Part shown: positions 1 through 37,959 of the stretch, one piece after another | Layout of the letters: each line of letters begins with the position of its first letter | How positions within the stretch are numbered: the stretch's first letter is position 1 | Source of the DNA: a virus | Taxonomy: Duplodnaviria > Heunggongvirae > Uroviricota > Caudoviricetes | DNA length: 37,959 nucleotides | Reading direction: 5' to 3' (one strand) | IMG/VR virus record: IMGVR_UViG_2541047683_000006 | Span: 1-37,959 of that record | Notes under the pieces: generated by a model | Seen by the model: the letters and a program-made list of their open reading frames with translations, nothing else | Databases searched by the model: none | What the model was told of the DNA's origin: nothing | Translations under genes and position numbers: made by a program

Positions 1-435
1 ATGCATCTAGAAGTCTCTATTAATCCAGAAACTAGAGCTGAATTTTTTGATGAAGTTTTTCTCAAATTCCCGGAGCTAGAGTCTTCTATCATTGATGATT
101 TCAAGAGATACAAAGCAACCGGTGAGCTTCCGCATTATTTCGGTAGGGACGTTGCGTATACTCAGCCCTATGGTGCTTTTCGGGCTGGGTTGATGCATAT
201 CCATCTTTGTCTACCGCCAAACAAGTTTCCCGAGAAACTTCCACAACCGGATAGGGTCTGCAAGAAAGGTGATCCTGATAATGATGCTTGTCTTGTGTAT
301 GTCCAAGGTGAGCTTTATGAGAATAAATATTCACTCATTGCTATTATGTATCCCGATGCACATGAAAAAGCAAGAAAACATGATGTGATGAGCTATCTGG
401 CGCGAATTGCCCAGAATTATAAAGATGAAAACTAA
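1..435 (+). CDS. YafO-family type II toxin-like protein (ribosome-dependent mRNA interferase family)
   Basis: 144-aa ORF with ATG at base 1; motif pattern LPxYFGRD...HIHL...LVYxQG...IAIxYPDAHxKAR matches my recollection of E. coli YafO; AT-rich; followed by hairpin plus T-run. A cognate antitoxin, if present, would be upstream outside the window. Confidence 0.5.
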   Translation: MHLEVSINPETRAEFFDEVFLKFPELESSIIDDFKRYKATGELPHYFGRDVAYTQPYGAFRAGLMHIHLCLPPNKFPEKLPQPDRVCKKGDPDNDACLVYVQGELYENKYSLIAIMYPDAHEKARKHDVMSYLARIAQNYKDEN

Positions 436-455
436 CCCGCCGAAGCGGGTTTTTT
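436..455 (+). terminator. Rho-independent terminator after the YafO-like gene
   Basis: cccgc-cgaa-gcggg stem-loop directly after the stop codon, followed by TTTTTT. Confidence 0.6.
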
Positions 456-461
456 GTGAGA

Positions 462-2228: not shown

Positions 2229-2816
2229 TCACTCTCCTTTGATGCGAATGCCAGCAAGCCAGTTTCTTATGCCGATATATTCAGCGTTCCTGAAACCGCT
2301 TTTTACATATATAAATGGCAAGCGAAGATTGTGACCGTTGGCTGCCAGGTAGTCTTTACAACCCTGTTCGGTGAAACAGCAGGTAACGAATTCATCAATA
2401 TCTTTCACAGCAACGCGCCGCCATTTTTCTGGTGGTTCCCGAAAGTTTTCATGAAGTAGTTCGAGACGACGACTTTGGAGTTTATTGGCTTCATTGCCAT
2501 CTTCATCAACCCAGACAATCCGGTCATAGTCATAATCAGCATCAACAACAATTTCGCGCTTTTGATACACACAAAACATAGGGTCTGACGTTATTCGATT
2601 ATCCTGTGTTCGAATATTTTCACCGATGATGCCAAACGAATCTGGCGTAGGTTTTGTCTGTAACTCTTCGATACGTTCAGCCAGCGCCGCGCACTTGGCC
2701 TCAGCTTCAGCAAATTTACGCACCAGGTACTCAGCGTTTGTTTCGTTCACTTTCAGATCTCGCGGTACACATTTCCCGCGAAGAAACCCTTCCATTTCGA
2801 AAACATTCATGCGCAT
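2229..2816 (-). CDS. Ead/Ea22-like early protein
   Basis: 195 aa, acidic, coiled-coil-like N-terminus (AEAEAKCAALAERIEELQ) and position in the early-left accessory region typical of Ead/Ea22-like proteins; by recollection only. Confidence 0.4.
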   Translation of the reverse strand: MRMNVFEMEGFLRGKCVPRDLKVNETNAEYLVRKFAEAEAKCAALAERIEELQTKPTPDSFGIIGENIRTQDNRITSDPMFCVYQKREIVVDADYDYDRIVWVDEDGNEANKLQSRRLELLHENFREPPEKWRRVAVKDIDEFVTCCFTEQGCKDYLAANGHNLRLPFIYVKSGFRNAEYIGIRNWLAGIRIKGE

Positions 2817-3343
2817 TTGCGTAACCCCGATAACTCGTTAAAACGTTCCATAAACATCCCGTAGGCATGGCCTGGTGACAGTGGAATAACTTTGAACATC
2901 TCTGTCGCCGGGATACCTTCCAGTACAGGCCAGAAAGAACCATCATCAAGCCCGAGATCGCGGCGTTCGGTTGCCAGCATAATGAGATCGGCATATTTCA
3001 CTGGCGTGCTCATAACAGGAGGTAACCCGTATTTCTCACGGATTACGGCGTCTATTTTTTCTTCCATCTGTTTATAGTCAGGAAGAAGGCGTTTCAGTGG
3101 AGCGGGGATGTCCTGGCAATACGCTTCTGTTGCATCATGCATTAACGCTTCAAAAGCAAATTCCTGCGGTACCAGCTGGCTGCAAAGAACCGCATGTTGG
3201 GCGACGCTGTAGAAGTGCGAAAGATGACCGGCAAAGCGACAGATATTTGAAAGGGAAACCGAGATATCGTTAATATCGATGTCGTCTTTATTTATCCTGT
3301 CATAATAAAAATGCTTACCGGAAAAAGTTTTAATAAATGACAT
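2807..3343 (-). CDS. HD-domain phosphohydrolase (YfdR-like 5'-deoxynucleotidase family)
   Basis: H...HD motif (AQHAVLCSQ...ALMHDATEAY); track ORF 2807..3370 starts at GTG with no SD; the ATG at 3341-3343 has GGAGAA 6 nt upstream, so that start is preferred. Confidence 0.6.
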   Translation of the reverse strand: MSFIKTFSGKHFYYDRINKDDIDINDISVSLSNICRFAGHLSHFYSVAQHAVLCSQLVPQEFAFEALMHDATEAYCQDIPAPLKRLLPDYKQMEEKIDAVIREKYGLPPVMSTPVKYADLIMLATERRDLGLDDGSFWPVLEGIPATEMFKVIPLSPGHAYGMFMERFNELSGLRKCA

Positions 3344-3436
3344 TTTGTTCTCCACGTATATGCGCTGCACCGCGCTGAATTCTGGTAAAAGGAAGCCCTC
3401 ACCATCCGGCGATTATTGAGTTAATTACGTTTCCAT

Positions 3437-3458
3437 AAATGCCCCCGCAGGGGCATTT
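3437..3458. other. Perfect 9-bp inverted repeat (aaatgcccc-cgca-ggggcattt) between the YfdQ-like and HD genes
   Basis: Seen directly; no flanking T-run on either strand, so it is more likely an RNA processing/stability hairpin or a protein-binding palindrome than an intrinsic terminator. Confidence 0.5.
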
Positions 3459-3470
3459 GCAGTAATGAAA

Positions 3471-4295
3471 TCAGGCGGTGAAAGTACCAATAAAGGTTTC
3501 TACTTTGCTGTCTTTGAATTTCTCAACAAGCAGATCACGAAATTCGTTAGCCATTTCTTCCTGCACTGCTTCCAGCTGAATAATGCGCAGAACCAGTACA
3601 GGACGATCGCCAGTGATAATGCTGAGGCGTAATTTAAATGGACGTTCTTTCAGACCTTCAAACGGAACGCATTTAAATTCAAATGCCACTGGCATAATAT
3701 CTTTGGTCTTCGCTTCGACAGACTCCATCAGGGAGCGTTTGCCGCTGAAGTCATTATCTTCAAAATCAGCGGTCTGGTTTGCTTCAATCGTGATTTTACG
3801 GACAGCCGCAGCCGATTTTGTTGCCTGAATAGCGTCACCATTAGCATCAAAGCCCACAAGGTAGTCGGCCCAGTCTTCAATCCATTCTGCCAGTGACTTC
3901 TGGGAGTTACGCTCGCCATTAACAGACAACAGAGCAGAGAACGGTGCTGTCTTTTTCAGTTTGAGAGTGGCGGTGTTATCTGCGTGACCTGGTTCATCAA
4001 TAGTACCCAGGTTAATCACACTGACGGCTCGCATATTATCGGCATCGATAAAGCAGCGGGTGCCTTCATCTGCAAGATCTTTAGAATAACGGGTAAAGTC
4101 ATCGATGCTGGCAGTGGAAAGCGCACCACGGAAACGGAAGCGATTTAAATTAAATTTCTCCAGATCATGAATGCGGAAATTCTCAGGCAATGCCACAGCA
4201 TCGGCACCAATCTTACTGATAATTTCATTAACACCCTGAGCAGAAATAAGGGCATGGATTTGATTAATTGCGGTTGCGTCTAAGTTCTGAGACAT
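3471..4295 (-). CDS. YfdQ-like protein (DUF2303 family)
   Basis: 274 aa; overall resemblance to E. coli CPS-53 prophage YfdQ as recalled, and adjacency to YfdP-like and YfdR-like genes; SD GAGGA upstream. Confidence 0.5.
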
Positions 4296-4360
4296 AATAA
4301 GTCCTCACTATATAAAGATATTCAGTGATGAGATAAATAATCGGTTAATTAAGAACGATA

Positions 4361-4723
4361 TTAATGACCTGCTGCGCGGAGTTTTCCGTCAGGTTCACCG
4401 GCAAGAGTCAGTAATTGTCCCTGGTCTTCCTGCAGAATAGTCAGGCGGCCACCGCGATTGACATACATCGGCGTTTCGGTGGTGTCTTCTTCGGAAATTT
4501 TCCCGCGGTTAGTCGGGCGAACATATGAGAGTTTGTGTTTGATTTTCACACGGTTCTCATCAAATGGTTCGATTTCCAGGTTGAGCGAGACCTTACCTTT
4601 GGTTTTCGTGTTCATCACACCGGAAGCGACTTCACTGAGAACTGCGCCGATTTTGGTTTCAAATACGCCGCCGTCCAGCTCCCCGATAAATGCCTGCACA
4701 TCAGTACTGCGTTCGCTAGCCAT
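4361..4723 (-). CDS. YfdP-like hypothetical protein (120 aa), first gene of the PL operon
   Basis: Internal ATG (MASERSTDV...) of track ORF 4361..5041 with SD GAGGAG upstream; the track extension upstream is GC-rich and low-complexity, so treated as non-coding leader. Confidence 0.45.
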   Translation of the reverse strand: MASERSTDVQAFIGELDGGVFETKIGAVLSEVASGVMNTKTKGKVSLNLEIEPFDENRVKIKHKLSYVRPTNRGKISEEDTTETPMYVNRGGRLTILQEDQGQLLTLAGEPDGKLRAAGH

Positions 4724-5177: not shown

Positions 5178-5831
5178 TCAAAAATCCATTATTACTTGTT
5201 TGACAAGACCAACTATTCTGCAGTTCTCACCGCATTCAATAGTTTTATAGTTAGGATTTAGTGGGACGAGATACCTGTTCGGCCAGTCCTCAACAAATTT
5301 TTTGAGTGTCGCTTCTTGCCCACCATTGATATGGGCAACAACGATTTTTCCGTTAATACACTCTGTATCAATAATATCTGGCTCTACGATAACGATAGAA
5401 CCTTCTGGTATCGATGGTGAGCCGAGGGGATTGGTCATTGAATCACCACGGACCCGTAGTGCAAATGCCATTTCTGATACAAGGGCGGTAGTATAAACCC
5501 ACTCTTCAGCATCTTCTTTCCTGACACCAGGCTCCGTCATTGTCCATGAACCCGCCTGAACCCACGAGATGAGGGGGACTTTTTTAACTGCGAATATTTC
5601 AGGTTTTAGATTTATCTTTGGTTCAGGCGAGCCTTTTCCGCTAACAAGCCACAGAGGATCGCATTTAAGTGCGTTGGCTAGGGCTTGAAGGTTGGCTCCA
5701 TTTGGTTGGTAGTCGTCCTTTTCCCATCCAGTAACCGTGACACGGTTCACACCAGTCAAATCAGCCAGTGCTTGTTGTGTCAGGTTCAGTTCTTTTCGCC
5801 TTTGGCGAATACGATCACTCATGTTCATCAT
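5178..5831 (-). CDS. cI: CI-like prophage repressor (XRE-type HTH plus S24 LexA-like autopeptidase domain)
   Basis: 217 aa; N-terminal HTH (LTQQALADLTGVNRVTVTGWE) and C-terminal S24 signature (RVRGDSM...K); divergent from the cro-like gene with operators between them. Confidence 0.85.
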   Translation of the reverse strand: MMNMSDRIRQRRKELNLTQQALADLTGVNRVTVTGWEKDDYQPNGANLQALANALKCDPLWLVSGKGSPEPKINLKPEIFAVKKVPLISWVQAGSWTMTEPGVRKEDAEEWVYTTALVSEMAFALRVRGDSMTNPLGSPSIPEGSIVIVEPDIIDTECINGKIVVAHINGGQEATLKKFVEDWPNRYLVPLNPNYKTIECGENCRIVGLVKQVIMDF

Positions 5832-5895
5832 GTAGGCAATCCTACCACATGCCCATGTAGGATTCTTGACATTGGTATGTTGGATATCCTACATT
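5830..5895. promoter_or_regulatory. OR region: three operator palindromes (about 5830-5845, 5855-5872, 5877-5894) with rightward PR and presumed divergent PRM
   Basis: atgtaggcaatcctac, atgtaggattcttgacat, atgttggatatcctacat; TTGACA at 5866-5871 and TACATT at 5890-5895 upstream of the cro ATG at 5927. Confidence 0.6.
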
Positions 5896-5926
5896 TCTGC
5901 TTAACGTAATTTAACGGGAGACAGAA

Positions 5927-6124
5927 ATGCGGAAATCCGACGTGATTAATTATTTCGGCGGAGTTTGTAAAACCGCCGAAGCCCTAGGTATTAAGCATCC
6001 GTCTGTTTCAGAGTGGCCTGAGATTATTCCTGAAGGCCGAGCGTACCAGTTAGAAAAAATTACTAACGGGAAACTGAAAGTTGACGTGTCTTTATATCAA
6101 AAGACTAACAGTGCTGCGGCATAA
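5927..6124 (+). CDS. cro: Cro-like small HTH regulator
   Basis: 65-aa ORF immediately right of OR, SD GGGAGA; HTH-like segment CKTAEALGIKHPSVSEW. Confidence 0.7.
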   Translation: MRKSDVINYFGGVCKTAEALGIKHPSVSEWPEIIPEGRAYQLEKITNGKLKVDVSLYQKTNSAAA

Positions 6125-6151: not shown

Positions 6152-6736
6152 GTGGGTAAAGAACCTGAATGGAAAGTTGATAAACAACCAGCATGGCTGG
6201 TGGCAGCAATACGAAGAACGATTGCTGATTTACCTCATGGCTATGAGGAAGCAGCAGAAATTCTTGGTTTGTATAAATCTGATGATATCACCCCAGCAAA
6301 AGATCAATTGCATAACAGACTGCGTAGCGGTGGGGATCAAATTTTTCCACTTGAGTGGGCCATGGTTTTACAGGATGCCAGTGGTACCAGGCATGTAACA
6401 GATGCAATAGCCCGTCGTAGTAATGGGGTGTTTGTGCCGCTGGTGGTCATTGATGACATTGACAATGGTGACATTAATCAGCGGCTGATGGAGTCAATAG
6501 AATGGATTGGCAAGCATTCCCAGTACTTACGCAAGGCAACTGCTGATGGAGTTATTGACCAAGCTGAGCGTGAGCAAATCGAAGAGAACAGCTACCAAGT
6601 AATGGCGAAGTGGCAGGAGCATTTAACACTGTTATTTCGTGTTTTTTGTGCGCCGGAAAAGAGTAACGCCCGCGAGTGTGCAGCTCCGGGCGTCGTGGCG
6701 TCGATTGCTTCTGGTTGTGGAGAAACTAACGCATGA
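6152..6736 (+). CDS. CII-like regulatory protein (phage 186 CII / CP76-like, possibly YdaT-like)
   Basis: 194 aa, GTG start with SD GAGGA; position directly after cro and loose pattern similarity to 186 CII as recalled; family assignment uncertain. Confidence 0.35.
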
Positions 6737-30712: not shown

Positions 30713-31137
30713 TGGAACTGTGGCTGACGGTGAACGGTAAACGCACCTGCGCCAGCGCACCGCTGGATCCGCTGACCCGCGCCGTGGTGATTTCCCTGTT
30801 TACCTGGCGGCGGGCGGAGCCTGATGACAACGCCGGCGTCCCGATGGGATGGTGGGGGGATACCTGGCCTGCGGTACAGAATGACCGTTACGGCTCCCGA
30901 CTGTGGCTGCTTCAGCGCAGCAAACTGACCAATCAGTTGGTGCAGACGGTAAGGGGGTATATCCGCGAATGCCTGCAATGGATGATTGATGACGGCGTGG
31001 TGTCCCGTATTGATCTGGATATCCGCCGCACCGGGATTAATGAACTGGGTAACAGTATCACTCTCTGGCGTCGTGACGGACCGGTAATGATTTCTTTTGA
31101 TGATCTGTGGAGTGCGATAACGCATGGCGGACAGTGA
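30709..31137 (+). CDS. GP46-family baseplate protein
   Basis: 142 aa; conserved order in Mu-like baseplate clusters. Confidence 0.65.
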   Translation: MMELWLTVNGKRTCASAPLDPLTRAVVISLFTWRRAEPDDNAGVPMGWWGDTWPAVQNDRYGSRLWLLQRSKLTNQLVQTVRGYIRECLQWMIDDGVVSRIDLDIRRTGINELGNSITLWRRDGPVMISFDDLWSAITHGGQ

Positions 31138-32182
31138 ATTTCAGCGCCCGACGCTGGCAGAAAATATCAGTATGCTCCGTAACGATTTATTCGCCAGGCT
31201 GGACGTCAGCGACACGCTCCGGCGCATGGATGAAGACGTGCGGGCAAAGGTGTATGCGGCGGCGCTGCATACGGTTTACGGTTACATCGATTATCTGGCA
31301 ATGAACATGCTGCCTGACCTGTGCGATGAGTCCTGGCTGGCGCGACATGCTGCGATGAAACGGTGTCCGCGCAAGGGAGCCACGGCTGCCAGTGGGTATA
31401 TGCGCTGGGAAGGTGTCAGCGATGGCCTGAAGGTGACCGCCGGGAGTGTTATTCAGCGCGATGACCTGGTGCAGTACACGACAACTGACGATGCAACCAG
31501 CTCCGGTGGTGTCCTGCGCGTGCCGATCGCCTGCTCAAGTGCAGGTGCGGTCGGTAACGCTGACGACGGTACGGCATTAATCCTGGTCACGCCGGTGAAT
31601 GGTCTGCCGTCTTCCGGTGTGGCTGACACCCTGACAGGCGGATTTGATACTGAAGAGCTGGAAACGTGGCGCGCCCGCGTCATTGAGCGGTATTACTGGA
31701 CGCCGCAGGGCGGGGCTGACGGGGACTATGTTGTCTGGGCTAAAGAAGTGCCCGGCATTACCCGCGCATGGACATACCGTCACTGGATGGGAACGGGAAC
31801 TGTCGGTGTGATGATTGCCAGCAGTGACCTGATTAATCCCATTCCTGAAGAATCAACGGAAACGGCGGCAAGACAACATATCGAGCCACTGGCCCCGGTG
31901 GCAGGCTCTGATTTGTATGTATTCAGGCCGGTGGCACATAAAGTGGATTTTCATATCCGCGTGACGCCGGACACACCGGAAATACGAGCCGCCATTACTG
32001 CGGAGTTGCGTTCGTTCCTGCTGCGTGATGGTTATCCGCAGGGAGAACTGAAGGTGTCGCGTATCAGTGAAGCGATTTCCGGTGCGAACGGGGAATACAG
32101 CCATCAGTTGCTTGCACCGGCGGACAATATCTCCATTGCAAAAAATGAACTGGCGGTTCTGGGGACGATTTTATGGACGTGA
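31124..32182 (+). CDS. Baseplate J-like protein (Mu gp47-like)
   Basis: 352 aa; conserved order. Confidence 0.75.
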
Positions 32183-35359: not shown

Positions 35360-36457
35360 TCAAGAGGTCTTATTTCTGCTCTTTTGGAGCTCTTCAAAAC
35401 GATTATGTAAAGATTTCGGATACAGTTCGGTATATACCTGCCATAGCACGTTTAATGAACGATGCCCTGTAACTTGGGCGACTTCCTCAATACTAAAACC
35501 AGCCTCAAATAAGCGACTTGCCCCTTCTCTACGCAAATCATGGTATCGCAGATCTTTAATACCTAATTTGCTTCTTACCCTCTGAAATCCCGCAGTAACA
35601 GAAGTGCTGTTATATGGAAAAATGAATTCCGATTTTTGGGGCTGTCGTTGGACGATATCCCAGGCTTCCCCAAGCAAGGCTACTTTCATGTGGTTGCCTT
35701 CCTTTTTGCGTGGATCTTTCCTGTCTCTTACGAGTATAGATTTTTGTTCCTGGTCGAGATCTTCCCATCGTAACCGGCATACTTCTCCGATTCGCATACA
35801 GGACCACACAGAAAATTTGAGGATATCAACGAACGGAATTTTTGAGCATTTATGTGTAGATCGTTGTTGAAGACCTTCAATGAGCATGTCCAGTTCATCA
35901 GATGCCGGTCTACGATTACGACGGTTTGATTTACCAATCAAACCAAGTTTAAGTAGATATGGACGAGCACTTTTCGCCGGGTTTGATGTGTAATTAATTC
36001 CGTATACAGGTTTGGCCGCATCCAGAACACTGCCAAGATAACTAACATCGTGGCTGACTGTTGCTGGACCTGCACCAGCGTTGTTTCTTAGCCTACAATG
36101 TTCAATTACGTCATTTTCTGTCAGTTCGGATAGTTTGATCGCGGAGATGTCACTATCCATAAGCAGTTCCAGCACATATCTTTTAGTACGACCTGCTTTA
36201 CCTCCGGCATTTGGGTCATTTAAATATTTGTGTAGTAAGTCACGGACTGTAAGTCCGTCAACTGCATTTGATGATGGAATGCCATATAGATCTAATTCCA
36301 TCACTTTCTGTGTACCCCATGTTTTGGCATGGGCATGTTTAGGGAATGTTTTGCTTTCCCTGTAAGTGATAACACCTTTTTCTTTGATAATCACATTACA
36401 GCGATAGCGTGGTGTGCCATCGGATTTTAGTCGTTTCTCTATGTTATAGTACGCCAT
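35360..36457 (-). CDS. int: Tyrosine-type site-specific integrase (dusA-associated)
   Basis: 365 aa; C-terminal catalytic region containing HDLRR...GHRS..Y-type motifs; adjacent to dusA. Confidence 0.85.
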   Translation of the reverse strand: MAYYNIEKRLKSDGTPRYRCNVIIKEKGVITYRESKTFPKHAHAKTWGTQKVMELDLYGIPSSNAVDGLTVRDLLHKYLNDPNAGGKAGRTKRYVLELLMDSDISAIKLSELTENDVIEHCRLRNNAGAGPATVSHDVSYLGSVLDAAKPVYGINYTSNPAKSARPYLLKLGLIGKSNRRNRRPASDELDMLIEGLQQRSTHKCSKIPFVDILKFSVWSCMRIGEVCRLRWEDLDQEQKSILVRDRKDPRKKEGNHMKVALLGEAWDIVQRQPQKSEFIFPYNSTSVTAGFQRVRSKLGIKDLRYHDLRREGASRLFEAGFSIEEVAQVTGHRSLNVLWQVYTELYPKSLHNRFEELQKSRNKTS

Positions 36458-36545
36458 TACACGACCTCGTTATTTCGGGTTCCCATAAATCGTGGGAACC
36501 TGCGCGGGAACCTAACGCGAGAAAAATAGCCTGAAATGTTCAAAA

Positions 36546-37583
36546 ATGCACGATAATCCTGAAACACAGAAAACTAATCAAACCAGCGCGATGCCTGAGA
36601 AAACTGGCGCTTACGGGAGTTCTCGGTTTAGCATTGCTCCTATGCTCGACTGGACGGACAGACATTGCCGCTATTTCTTGCGTCTGCTTTCCCGCAATAC
36701 GTTGCTGTATACCGAAATGGTGACTACAGGGGCGATTATTCACGGTAAAGGTGATTACCTGGCGTACAGTGAAGAAGAACATCCGGTAGCATTGCAACTG
36801 GGCGGTAGCGATCCGGCGGCGCTGGCGCAGTGTGCAAAGCTGGCAGAAGCGCGCGGATATGATGAGATCAACCTGAATGTCGGCTGCCCGTCTGACCGGG
36901 TGCAGAACGGCATGTTTGGGGCGTGTCTGATGGGTAATGCGCAGCTGGTTGCCGACTGCGTGAAAGCGATGCGCGATGTGGTGTCGATTCCGGTGACGGT
37001 GAAAACGCGTATTGGCATCGACGACCAGGACAGCTATGAATTTCTCTGCGATTTCATCAACACCGTTTCCGGCAAAGGCGAGTGTGAGATGTTCATCATC
37101 CACGCACGTAAAGCCTGGCTTTCGGGGTTAAGCCCGAAAGAAAACCGTGAAATCCCGCCGCTCGATTATCCGCGTGTGTATCAACTGAAGCGTGACTTTC
37201 CGCATCTGACAATGTCGATTAACGGTGGCATCAAGTCGCTGGAAGAGGCAAAAGCGCATTTGCAACATATGGATGGCGTGATGGTCGGGCGCGAAGCGTA
37301 TCAGAATCCGGGTATTCTGGCGGCGGTAGACCGAGAGATCTTTGGTTCCTCGGATACCGATGCCGATCCGGTGGCGGTAGTGCGCGCCATGTATCCGTAC
37401 ATTGAGCGTGAACTCAGCCAGGGGACGTATCTTGGCCATATTACCCGGCATATGCTGGGCTTGTTCCAGGGTATTCCTGGCGCGCGGCAGTGGCGGCGTT
37501 ATTTAAGTGAAAATGCCCATAAAGCTGGTGCTGACATTAACGTGCTGGAACAAGCGCTCAAACTGGTGGCAGATAAGCGTTAA
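36546..37583 (+). CDS. dusA: tRNA-dihydrouridine(20/20a) synthase DusA
   Basis: 345 aa matching E. coli DusA as recalled ([14 protein letters not shown]..., [14 protein letters not shown]...); the extreme 5' end may be prophage-supplied. Confidence 0.9.
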
Positions 37584-37613
37584 CTTTTCACCAAAAAGTA
37601 GTCAAATTCACCA

Positions 37614-37641
37614 CGCCCTGCGCACCGTCGCGGGGCGTTTT
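37614..37641 (+). terminator. Intrinsic terminator after dusA
   Basis: cgccctgcg-caccgt-cgcggggcg stem (one G-U pair) followed by TTTT. Confidence 0.45.
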
Positions 37642-37665
37642 GCTGTTAAATCAATAGATTATTTT

Positions 37666-37680
37666 TGGCATGATTCTTGT
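37666..37680 (+). promoter_or_regulatory. Sigma-54-type promoter upstream of pspG
   Basis: TGGCATGATTCTTGT fits the -24 TGGCA / -12 TTG spacing; pspG is known to be sigma-54 and PspF dependent. Confidence 0.45.
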
Positions 37681-37716
37681 AATGCCAGCAAGAGATTTCA
37701 TATTTGGGAGAGCATC

Positions 37717-37959
37717 ATGCTGGAACTACTTTTTGTGATTGGCTTTTTTGTCATGCTGATGGTCACCGGCGTTTCGTTGCTGGGTATTATCGCTGCGCTG
37801 GTTGTGGCGACGGCCATTATGTTCCTCGGCGGTATGCTGGCATTGATGATTAAGTTGCTGCCGTGGTTACTACTGGCGATTGCGGTGGTGTGGGTTATTA
37901 AGGCGATTAAAGCACCAAAAGTGCCTAAATATCAGCGTTATGACCGCTGGCGTTACTAA
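37717..37959 (+). CDS. pspG: Phage shock protein G
   Basis: 80-aa very hydrophobic protein ending ...KVPKYQRYDRWRY, matching E. coli PspG; the track ORF starts further upstream, but the ATG at 37717 follows the sigma-54 promoter. Confidence 0.85.
   Translation: MLELLFVIGFFVMLMVTGVSLLGIIAALVVATAIMFLGGMLALMIKLLPWLLLAIAVVWVIKAIKAPKVPKYQRYDRWRY

Follow-up and report, generated by a model that had tools for sequence, protein, structure and literature searches.

A YafO-family toxin gene at the end of a dusA-integrated prophage is paired with a conserved and apparently exported partner protein

Introduction

YafO of Escherichia coli K-12 is a ribosome-dependent mRNA interferase that causes growth arrest (PMC2814082; Zhang et al. 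2009 as cited in PMC7180214). In the survey of Leplae et al. 2011, YafO was paired either with Phd or with untested candidates proposed through guilt by association, and no YafO had been found on a phage at that time (PMC3141249). YafO genes of prophages and tailocins have been reported as orphans without an antitoxin (PMC10449497, PMC4684702, PMC9836087).

The DNA analyzed here, referred to as the window, is the 37,959-nucleotide stretch of IMG/VR virus record IMGVR_UViG_2541047683_000006, and a YafO-like gene lies at its very left edge. A preliminary description of the window expected a YafN-like antitoxin gene just outside it or, failing that, an orphan toxin. The locus thus raises the question of what stands upstream of this gene, and whether the gene belongs to a canonical yafNO pair, has no partner, or is part of a different arrangement.

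The toxin gene and its family

The toxin gene at 1–435 (+) is a complete coding sequence for 144 aa with an ATG start, and is the second gene of a two-gene cassette. Window positions 1–460 are identical to DNA of E. coli PD7 (0 mismatches), in which PGAP calls the same start and the same stop for this coding sequence; its product is WP_000549966.1, named 'type II toxin-antitoxin system YafO family toxin' in PGAP/RefSeq. An in-frame TAG is present in PD7 at 9 nt 5' of the toxin ATG, so the open reading frame does not continue upstream as a longer gene, a possibility that the preliminary description had allowed.

The YafO-type motif pattern noticed earlier in the 144-aa product is genuine: HIHL (residues 66–69), LVYVQG (98–103), and IAIMYPDAH (113–121) all align with motifs of K-12 YafO. 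The profile search that had been advised gives a significant match to Pfam PF13957 (YafO_toxin), with 76.5 bits against a cut-off of 25 and E = 1.9e-21 over profile positions 1–100 of 101. BLASTP finds 36% identity to K-12 YafO over 117 residues (E = 2e-19), and the score against NCBIfam NF007377, the K-12 YafO equivalog, is 75.8 bits, which is below the cut-off of 153. The protein is thus a member of the YafO family and not the same protein as K-12 YafO. The two have PF13957 and the HIH, LVYxQG, and P(D/E)xH motifs in common, whereas the window toxin falls below the NF007377 cut-off and belongs to a separate clade of 142–148-aa proteins.

When the phage-clade toxins are aligned with K-12 YafO, 21 columns are invariant. 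Among them are three histidines, one arginine, one lysine, and two tyrosines, and they include K38, H66-I67-H68, R85, L98-V99-Y100, G103, P118, and H121. This invariance out to K-12 YafO makes purifying selection on the toxin clear, and argues for a conserved active site. The AlphaFold model of the toxin is confident and predicts a RelE/HigB fold, in line with the RelE-like fold proposed for YafO in PMC2814082; no YafO structure was found in the PDB. Compared to RelE, HigB, YoeB, and YafQ, the ribosome-dependent RNase toxins of the RelE/ParE superfamily, the toxin has an identity of just 7–17%, and its model is about 50 residues longer, with extra predicted N-terminal helices and a long C-terminal helix. 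Judged by its sequence, the gene is a real and intact, prophage-borne YafO-type RNA-cutting toxin gene, and by homology to K-12 YafO its product would cleave mRNA on the ribosome.

Prophage context and the edges of the window

Near the right end of the window, a tyrosine integrase gene (35360–36457, −) is followed by host dusA (36546–37583; Pfam Dus, E = 8e-105) and by host pspG (37717–37959), with which the window ends. The stretch 35360–37959 is partly non-phage, as dusA and pspG beyond the integrase belong to the host. Phage sequence replaces the 5' end of dusA, which is typical of dusA-specific integration. The real end of the prophage is the displaced dusA 5' fragment, which in PD7 and elppa4 is found some 760 bp left of window base 1. 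The displaced fragment, together with the integrase and dusA at the right end, identifies a dusA-integrated lambdoid prophage.

The YafO-like gene is located at the far end of this prophage, with attL on one side and, on the other, the excisionase-like gene that ends the early-left operon. The latter, a PrtN-family or excisionase-like gene at 462–761 (−), stands outside the cassette and is the right boundary of the moron. Its product matches PF11112 (E = 4.4e-24) and phrog_1300 'excisionase' (E = 2.5e-40), and PGAP calls the equivalent gene at 462–734. All early-left genes, from 462–761 and 771–1343 onwards to the cI-like repressor at 5178–5831, are on the minus strand, and the toxin gene on the plus strand is therefore convergent with the early-left operon, as had been described. 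One of these early-left open reading frames (1343–1654, −) encodes a 103-aa product that lacks a Pfam match and is strongly hydrophobic near its N-terminus (MSNYLYWSGLVANIALMLFVALCIWVWFIWPF...); it may be a small membrane protein.

Many IMG/VR provirus contigs begin exactly at the toxin ATG, and others begin at the partner ATG (edge-placed loci L048, L049, L051, L054, L059, L065–L067, L071, and L072). These starts at gene borders indicate that the left edge of the window is an artefact of provirus calling that splits a two-gene unit. The same gene arrangement is found in two sequenced phages, PhiR40_1 and PhiR55_1. The depositor of PhiR40_1 named the upstream gene 'YafM antitoxin' (PV340560.1) and the downstream one 'YafO toxin', apparently from their position.

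The upstream gene and the comparison with yafNO

The gene upstream of the toxin lies outside the window, at 5445–5984 of the E. coli PD7 locus L001, on the same strand as the toxin gene. It encodes a 179-aa 'hypothetical protein', is 16 bp upstream of the toxin gene, and ends 17 nt before window base 1. The YafN-like antitoxin that was expected in this place is not there, and inspection of the upstream DNA for a small antitoxin gene led to this 179-aa protein instead, which has no similarity to K-12 YafN (BLASTP E = 0.24; hhalign probability 0.3%) and in which neither Phd/YefM nor any other Pfam domain was found. The same 179-aa protein is upstream of the toxin in 49 complete E. coli genomes and in the two isolated phages.

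Searches of the partner against Pfam, NCBIfam, and PADLOC gave no consistent match, and the PDB sequences held no relative among solved structures. Neither a DNA-binding domain nor a known antitoxin fold was detected by profile and fold searches. In PHROGs, the partner belongs only to phrog_8416, 'unknown function', and for the toxin and the partner alike PADLOC-DB v2 returned 0 families at E ≤ 0.1. The partner family is small: clustering at 50% identity gives it 98 clusters out of 1.84 billion representatives, and nearly all of its members are stand-alone proteins of 160–190 aa. The isoelectric points of the partner and the toxin are both about 6, and a contrast in pI is thus uninformative.

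A canonical yafNO pair would have a YafN gene of the Phd/YefM type just upstream of base 1, as K-12-type YafO genes do in K-12 (L004) and in Marinospirillum (L043, where the upstream open reading frame matches YafN with E = 5e-25). Among the loci compared, YafN homologues of 97–99 aa occur only beside these short K-12-type YafO genes, and no YafN-like open reading frame precedes any partner-carrying toxin gene. The DNA identical to the window has the 179-aa non-YafN protein in that position, and the toxin itself scores 75.8 against the 153 demanded for K-12-type YafO by NCBIfam. We consider the canonical arrangement refuted.

The cassette nevertheless resembles K-12 yafN-yafO in its organization, with the partner gene first, the toxin gene second, both on one strand, and a short gap. 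The differences lie in the partner, which is a 179-aa protein with a signal peptide-like N-terminus and has no detectable homology to the 97-aa Phd/YefM-type YafN of K-12, and in the genomic setting. In K-12, yafNO is part of the LexA-regulated dinB-yafN-yafO-yafP operon, whereas the cassette is a moron at the end of a dusA-integrated prophage. The antitoxins of RelE, HigB, YoeB, and YafQ are cytoplasmic DNA-binding proteins; in contrast, the partner has no detected DNA-binding domain and has a signal-like N-terminus.

Further kinds of neighbor were seen beside other YafO-family genes. L107 (IMGVR_UViG_2826149675_000005, 2428–4552) carries two YafO-family cassettes in tandem: the first consists of a 186-aa signal-peptide partner and a 145-aa toxin, and in the second a 136-aa YafO-family gene has a 10-nt overlap with the gene of a 198-aa protein that lacks a signal peptide. 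This second pair would be a further partner type. In a Pontibacterium metagenome-assembled genome (L044, 2363–3360), a 196-aa protein without a signal peptide is upstream of the YafO-family gene, and in L045 (2133–2767) a 64-aa open reading frame takes this position. None of these three neighbors (198, 196, and 64 aa) has homology to the partner family, and those of L044 and L045 do not resemble YafN. The YafO family thus has at least four kinds of upstream neighbor, and the phage clade has exclusively one.

Linkage, co-divergence and distribution of the pair

The partner and toxin genes are on the same strand with the partner first, and the gap of 16 bp found here ranges from −1 to 35 bp elsewhere. 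A scan of one genome per species, together with look-ups in Yersinia, Gilliamella, Providencia, and Photorhabdus, gave 41 toxin-bearing loci with the partner family upstream (32 from the genome scan). The gap at these loci is −1 to 21 bp, except for one truncated toxin gene with a gap of 194 bp, and nearly all of their toxins have 142–148 aa. The hosts are Enterobacterales, Orbaceae, Pseudomonas, and Halomonas. In IMG/VR, the partner is present in 68 of the 69 toxin-seeded loci with enough upstream sequence, and the toxin in 43 of the 44 partner-seeded loci; the sequence of the one exception stops 271 bp past the partner. Protein searches with the partner and with the toxin also led to adjacent locus tags and shared contigs.

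For 76 distinct pairs, identity between partners is correlated with identity between their toxins (Pearson 0.88), and the partner diverges at about double the rate, with a mean identity of 28% against 55% for the toxin. Faster evolution is usual for antitoxins and immunity proteins. The pair is strictly linked in both directions and co-diverging.

Of 5426 complete E. coli genomes, 49 carry the cassette, and their copies share at least 99.4% identity. The pair is annotated as intact in all the E. coli records listed, and one record shows the partner alone, at the record start. Matches to the flanking early-left genes were found in 747 E. coli records, but the cassette in just 50. The cassette and early-left genes also occur at 30807–32160 of NZ_CP142787.1, a 55.6-kb 'plasmid' of E. 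coli SX12, and on the SX12 chromosome; NZ_CP142787.1 may be an excised or circular prophage copy captured in the assembly.

Phages differ in where they carry the cassette. It adjoins att in the E. coli dusA prophage; in Yersinia it is in a P2-like prophage between the tail tube/E genes and the tape-measure gene, beside ParDE; in Gilliamella it is between tail-fibre and lysis genes; and in Providencia and Photorhabdus it is among tail or baseplate genes. In Yersinia mollaretii (L005, 2328–4438), the cassette directly follows a ParD/ParE pair and an extra orphan ParD gene, and this region looks like a small toxin-antitoxin or defence gene island within the tail operon. The variable presence (50 against 747 records) and the differing insertion sites amount to the behavior of a moron.

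An orphan or relic toxin would mean that the upstream gene is an unrelated moron, and that the toxin is weakly active and tolerated, or decaying. Such a reading could draw on the papers that list prophage 'YafO' without an antitoxin (PMC10449497, PMC4684702) and on the weak Shine-Dalgarno sequence of the toxin gene, but the same partner family stands beside the toxin in every context and taxon examined. Moreover, the 21 invariant residues point to purifying selection, and the near-identical E. coli copies are annotated as intact genes in all the records listed. With the upstream gene so strictly conserved the toxin is no orphan, and the orphan alternative raised in the preliminary description has fallen to a very small residual probability.

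Composition, expression signals and the case for an RNA antitoxin

The toxin gene has a GC content of 40.7% against 51.4% for the prophage, which places it in the lowest 3% of 435-bp windows, and the cassette as a whole ranges from 40.7 to 43.9%. An intrinsic terminator at 434–457 overlaps the toxin stop codon and consists of a 7-bp GC-rich stem with a GAAG loop (434–451) followed by TTTTTT; the corresponding hairpin in PD7 is at 6434–6451 of L001. Its predicted folding energy is −11.1 kcal/mol (z = −2.53), and one of 200 shuffled sequences folds equally well. The AT-richness and the gene's own terminator, both pointed out in the preliminary description, are thus confirmed. The terminator scan called the hairpin on both strands, with a weaker tail on the minus strand, and the terminator may also stop the convergent early-left transcript.

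A promoter-like site is present in PD7 at L001 5363–5391, in a scan in which the count of such sites is no higher than the shuffle expectation. The partner gene is preceded by the Shine-Dalgarno sequence GAGG, and the toxin gene by just a weak GGA. With a promoter-like site and a terminator to itself, and a place between attL (in dusA) and the last early-left gene, the cassette is likely to be expressed in the lysogen. The only operator-like palindrome upstream of the partner is a weak 14-nt inverted repeat with 79% complementarity. About 670 bp to the left of window base 1 (L001 5318–5337), in the AT-rich DNA that separates the dusA fragment from the partner gene, there is a perfect tandem direct repeat of two 10-nt units (TCTATTCATA twice), which may be an integrase arm-type binding site of attL and not an operator of the cassette.

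A type I or type III RNA antitoxin in or beside the cassette, with the 179-aa protein doing another job, has nothing positive to recommend it, and was considered only because the protein partner looks exported. Rfam searches came nowhere near threshold: the best match, isrK, scored 19.6 bits where the gathering score is 50, and falls on the terminator. There is no tandem repeat array of the ToxI kind, the sole repeat being the 2 x 10-nt one in the att-proximal spacer. In addition, the flanks of the cassette are entirely different between phage contexts. We therefore regard an RNA antitoxin as highly improbable.

Prophage morons and prophage toxin-antitoxin or abortive-infection cassettes occur, for example, in the accessory hotspots of P2-like and lambdoid phages. 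Like them, the cassette has its own promoter-like site and terminator, a deviant GC content, a minority presence, and varied insertion sites. The cassette is a conserved bicistronic phage moron, marked by low GC, terminator, promoter-like site, and variable presence.

Export signal and predicted structure of the partner

The N-terminus of the partner reads as a Sec signal peptide, MNPFNAITFAALCGPLACPAAMA/QEF. Partners from other hosts begin with MNFFTVAKFAMLSAAMPQPAASA/QM in Yersinia, MNLSLRSCLAVVLFGGVLSVPSFSA/GY in Photorhabdus, MKAIKMILAALATGVATVPS... in Providencia, MANHSVINSAILAALFAFSSQA/DE in Gilliamella, and MSAKAAAPALIVAAMALVGDYSAAA/EG in Pseudomonas, and MKKQMKNQSKASGALMASLLALAMGMTASTLATVQA/ST is an example from a remote representative. 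In the distant partners this segment is conserved in character and not in sequence: a short uncharged hydrophobic core, often a K/R-containing n-region, and a small-x-small site.

The signal-peptide call was made with a rule-based heuristic of our own and comparative reasoning, and not with SignalP. The rule asks for an uncharged run of at least 14 residues with a 10-residue hydrophobic core and a small-x-small site after it. By this rule, a signal is present in 59 of 60 members of the partner family, 67 of 83 distant representatives, and 0 of 38 toxins. Of the 68 long open reading frames in the window, seven are also called, several of which are real membrane or exported proteins. The h-regions of the partners are mostly of 10–15 residues, a length which fits a cleaved signal better than a membrane anchor. 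On these sequence features the partner appears to be exported. A lipoprotein reading of the partner was rejected, as Cys13 is outside any lipobox and is not conserved. Export of the toxin by Tat hitch-hiking was likewise rejected, the signal regions having no twin-arginine motif.

The AlphaFold model available for the partner is that of a homologue with 76% identity. It predicts an isolated N-terminal helix at 6–24 with low confidence, a disordered linker of about 20 residues at 25–43, and a confident helical bundle of about 135 aa at 44–176. Fold searches with this model retrieved generic helical bundles and nothing more specific.

Proposed mechanism

Taken on its sequence and that of its neighbors, the window gene is neither a part of a canonical yafNO pair nor an orphan; it is a phage-borne variant with an apparently exported partner. 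The scheme that follows is inferred as regards toxicity, the neutralizing action of the partner, its export, the trigger of the module, and its function. The preferred reading, which we hold at somewhat short of even odds, is a toxin-antitoxin-like module in which the partner precursor would neutralize the toxin, export would lower the free pool of the partner, and an interruption would lead to abortive infection or prophage retention. A role of the partner as the restraint on the toxin fits with its strict linkage, its first place in the pair, the close spacing of the genes, its stronger Shine-Dalgarno sequence, and its faster evolution.

In this module, the toxin would halt translation by cutting ribosome-bound mRNA, as K-12 YafO does. 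The partner would be made first, from the stronger Shine-Dalgarno sequence, and would serve as the cognate neutralizer or controller in place of YafN. As a precursor, either cytoplasmic or at the membrane, it would act on the toxin. Free partner would continually be exported, so that protection would need ongoing partner synthesis. An infecting phage that shuts off host expression or disturbs the envelope, or the loss of the prophage, would be the trigger. The freed RNase would then arrest the cell, in the form of abortive infection or post-segregational arrest. Abortive infection or prophage stabilization, the two roles suggested in the preliminary description, is a plausible function.

The preferred reading meets a compartment difficulty, since a cytoplasmic RNase needs a cytoplasmic restraint and the partner appears to be exported. 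Once exported, a periplasmic protein cannot bind a cytoplasmic RNase. One way to meet this would be a genuine Sec-exported antitoxin, of which only the newly made precursor neutralizes the toxin, and which is cleared in its free form by secretion and not by proteolysis. We regard this specific form as doubtful.

On the other hand, and as the main rival, the partner may be purely periplasmic and act in superinfection exclusion, for example by blocking DNA entry, or in sensing damage to the envelope, with the YafO-like RNase as a latent abortive-infection effector that is restrained otherwise, by low expression, a host factor, or an activation requirement. Such an envelope-sensing, two-layered defence is possible, if on balance unlikely. 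In its favor, Sec-type signal features are kept although the family has otherwise diverged to 15–20% identity, the predicted disordered linker parts the N-terminal helix from the folded bundle, no DNA-binding or antitoxin-like domain was detected in the partner, and the cassette occupies prophage positions of the moron or defence type, adjoining ParDE in Yersinia. However, independent genes should shuffle among phages, and the pair is instead strictly linked, tightly spaced or overlapping, and co-diverging. Moreover, a soluble periplasmic protein would have no evident signaling route to a cytoplasmic RNase, and an RNase with conserved catalytic-type residues that is not neutralized should be counter-selected, whereas the toxin is annotated as intact in all the E. 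coli records listed.

Significance

The YafO toxin family and the RefSeq annotation of this gene as a YafO-family toxin are already known. What is apparently new, from the sequence comparisons, is that the phage YafO clade is always paired with one partner family, that this partner carries a predicted signal peptide, and that it has no known relatives. In the searched literature, a RelE-fold RNase was not found together with an exported partner in any toxin-antitoxin or abortive-infection system, nor was there a characterized YafO toxin with this partner family or an exported antitoxin for a RelE-fold toxin.

YafO genes of prophages and tailocins are routinely annotated as 'type II TA toxin', and a fixed partner would correct this recurrent annotation. 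The pair also gives an entry point to the partner family, with about 100 sequence clusters and none of assigned function. If the partner is indeed a Sec-exported antitoxin, the pair would be a compartment-gated module, and its activation would signal the state of translation, of Sec, or of the membrane, as when a phage injects its genome or the host is shut off; such control logic was not found described for a RelE-fold toxin in the searched literature. If the partner does not neutralize the toxin, the pair would be a two-compartment defence cassette. If it does, the partner would represent a new class of antitoxin, and possibly a new coupling of a toxin to envelope or secretion status.
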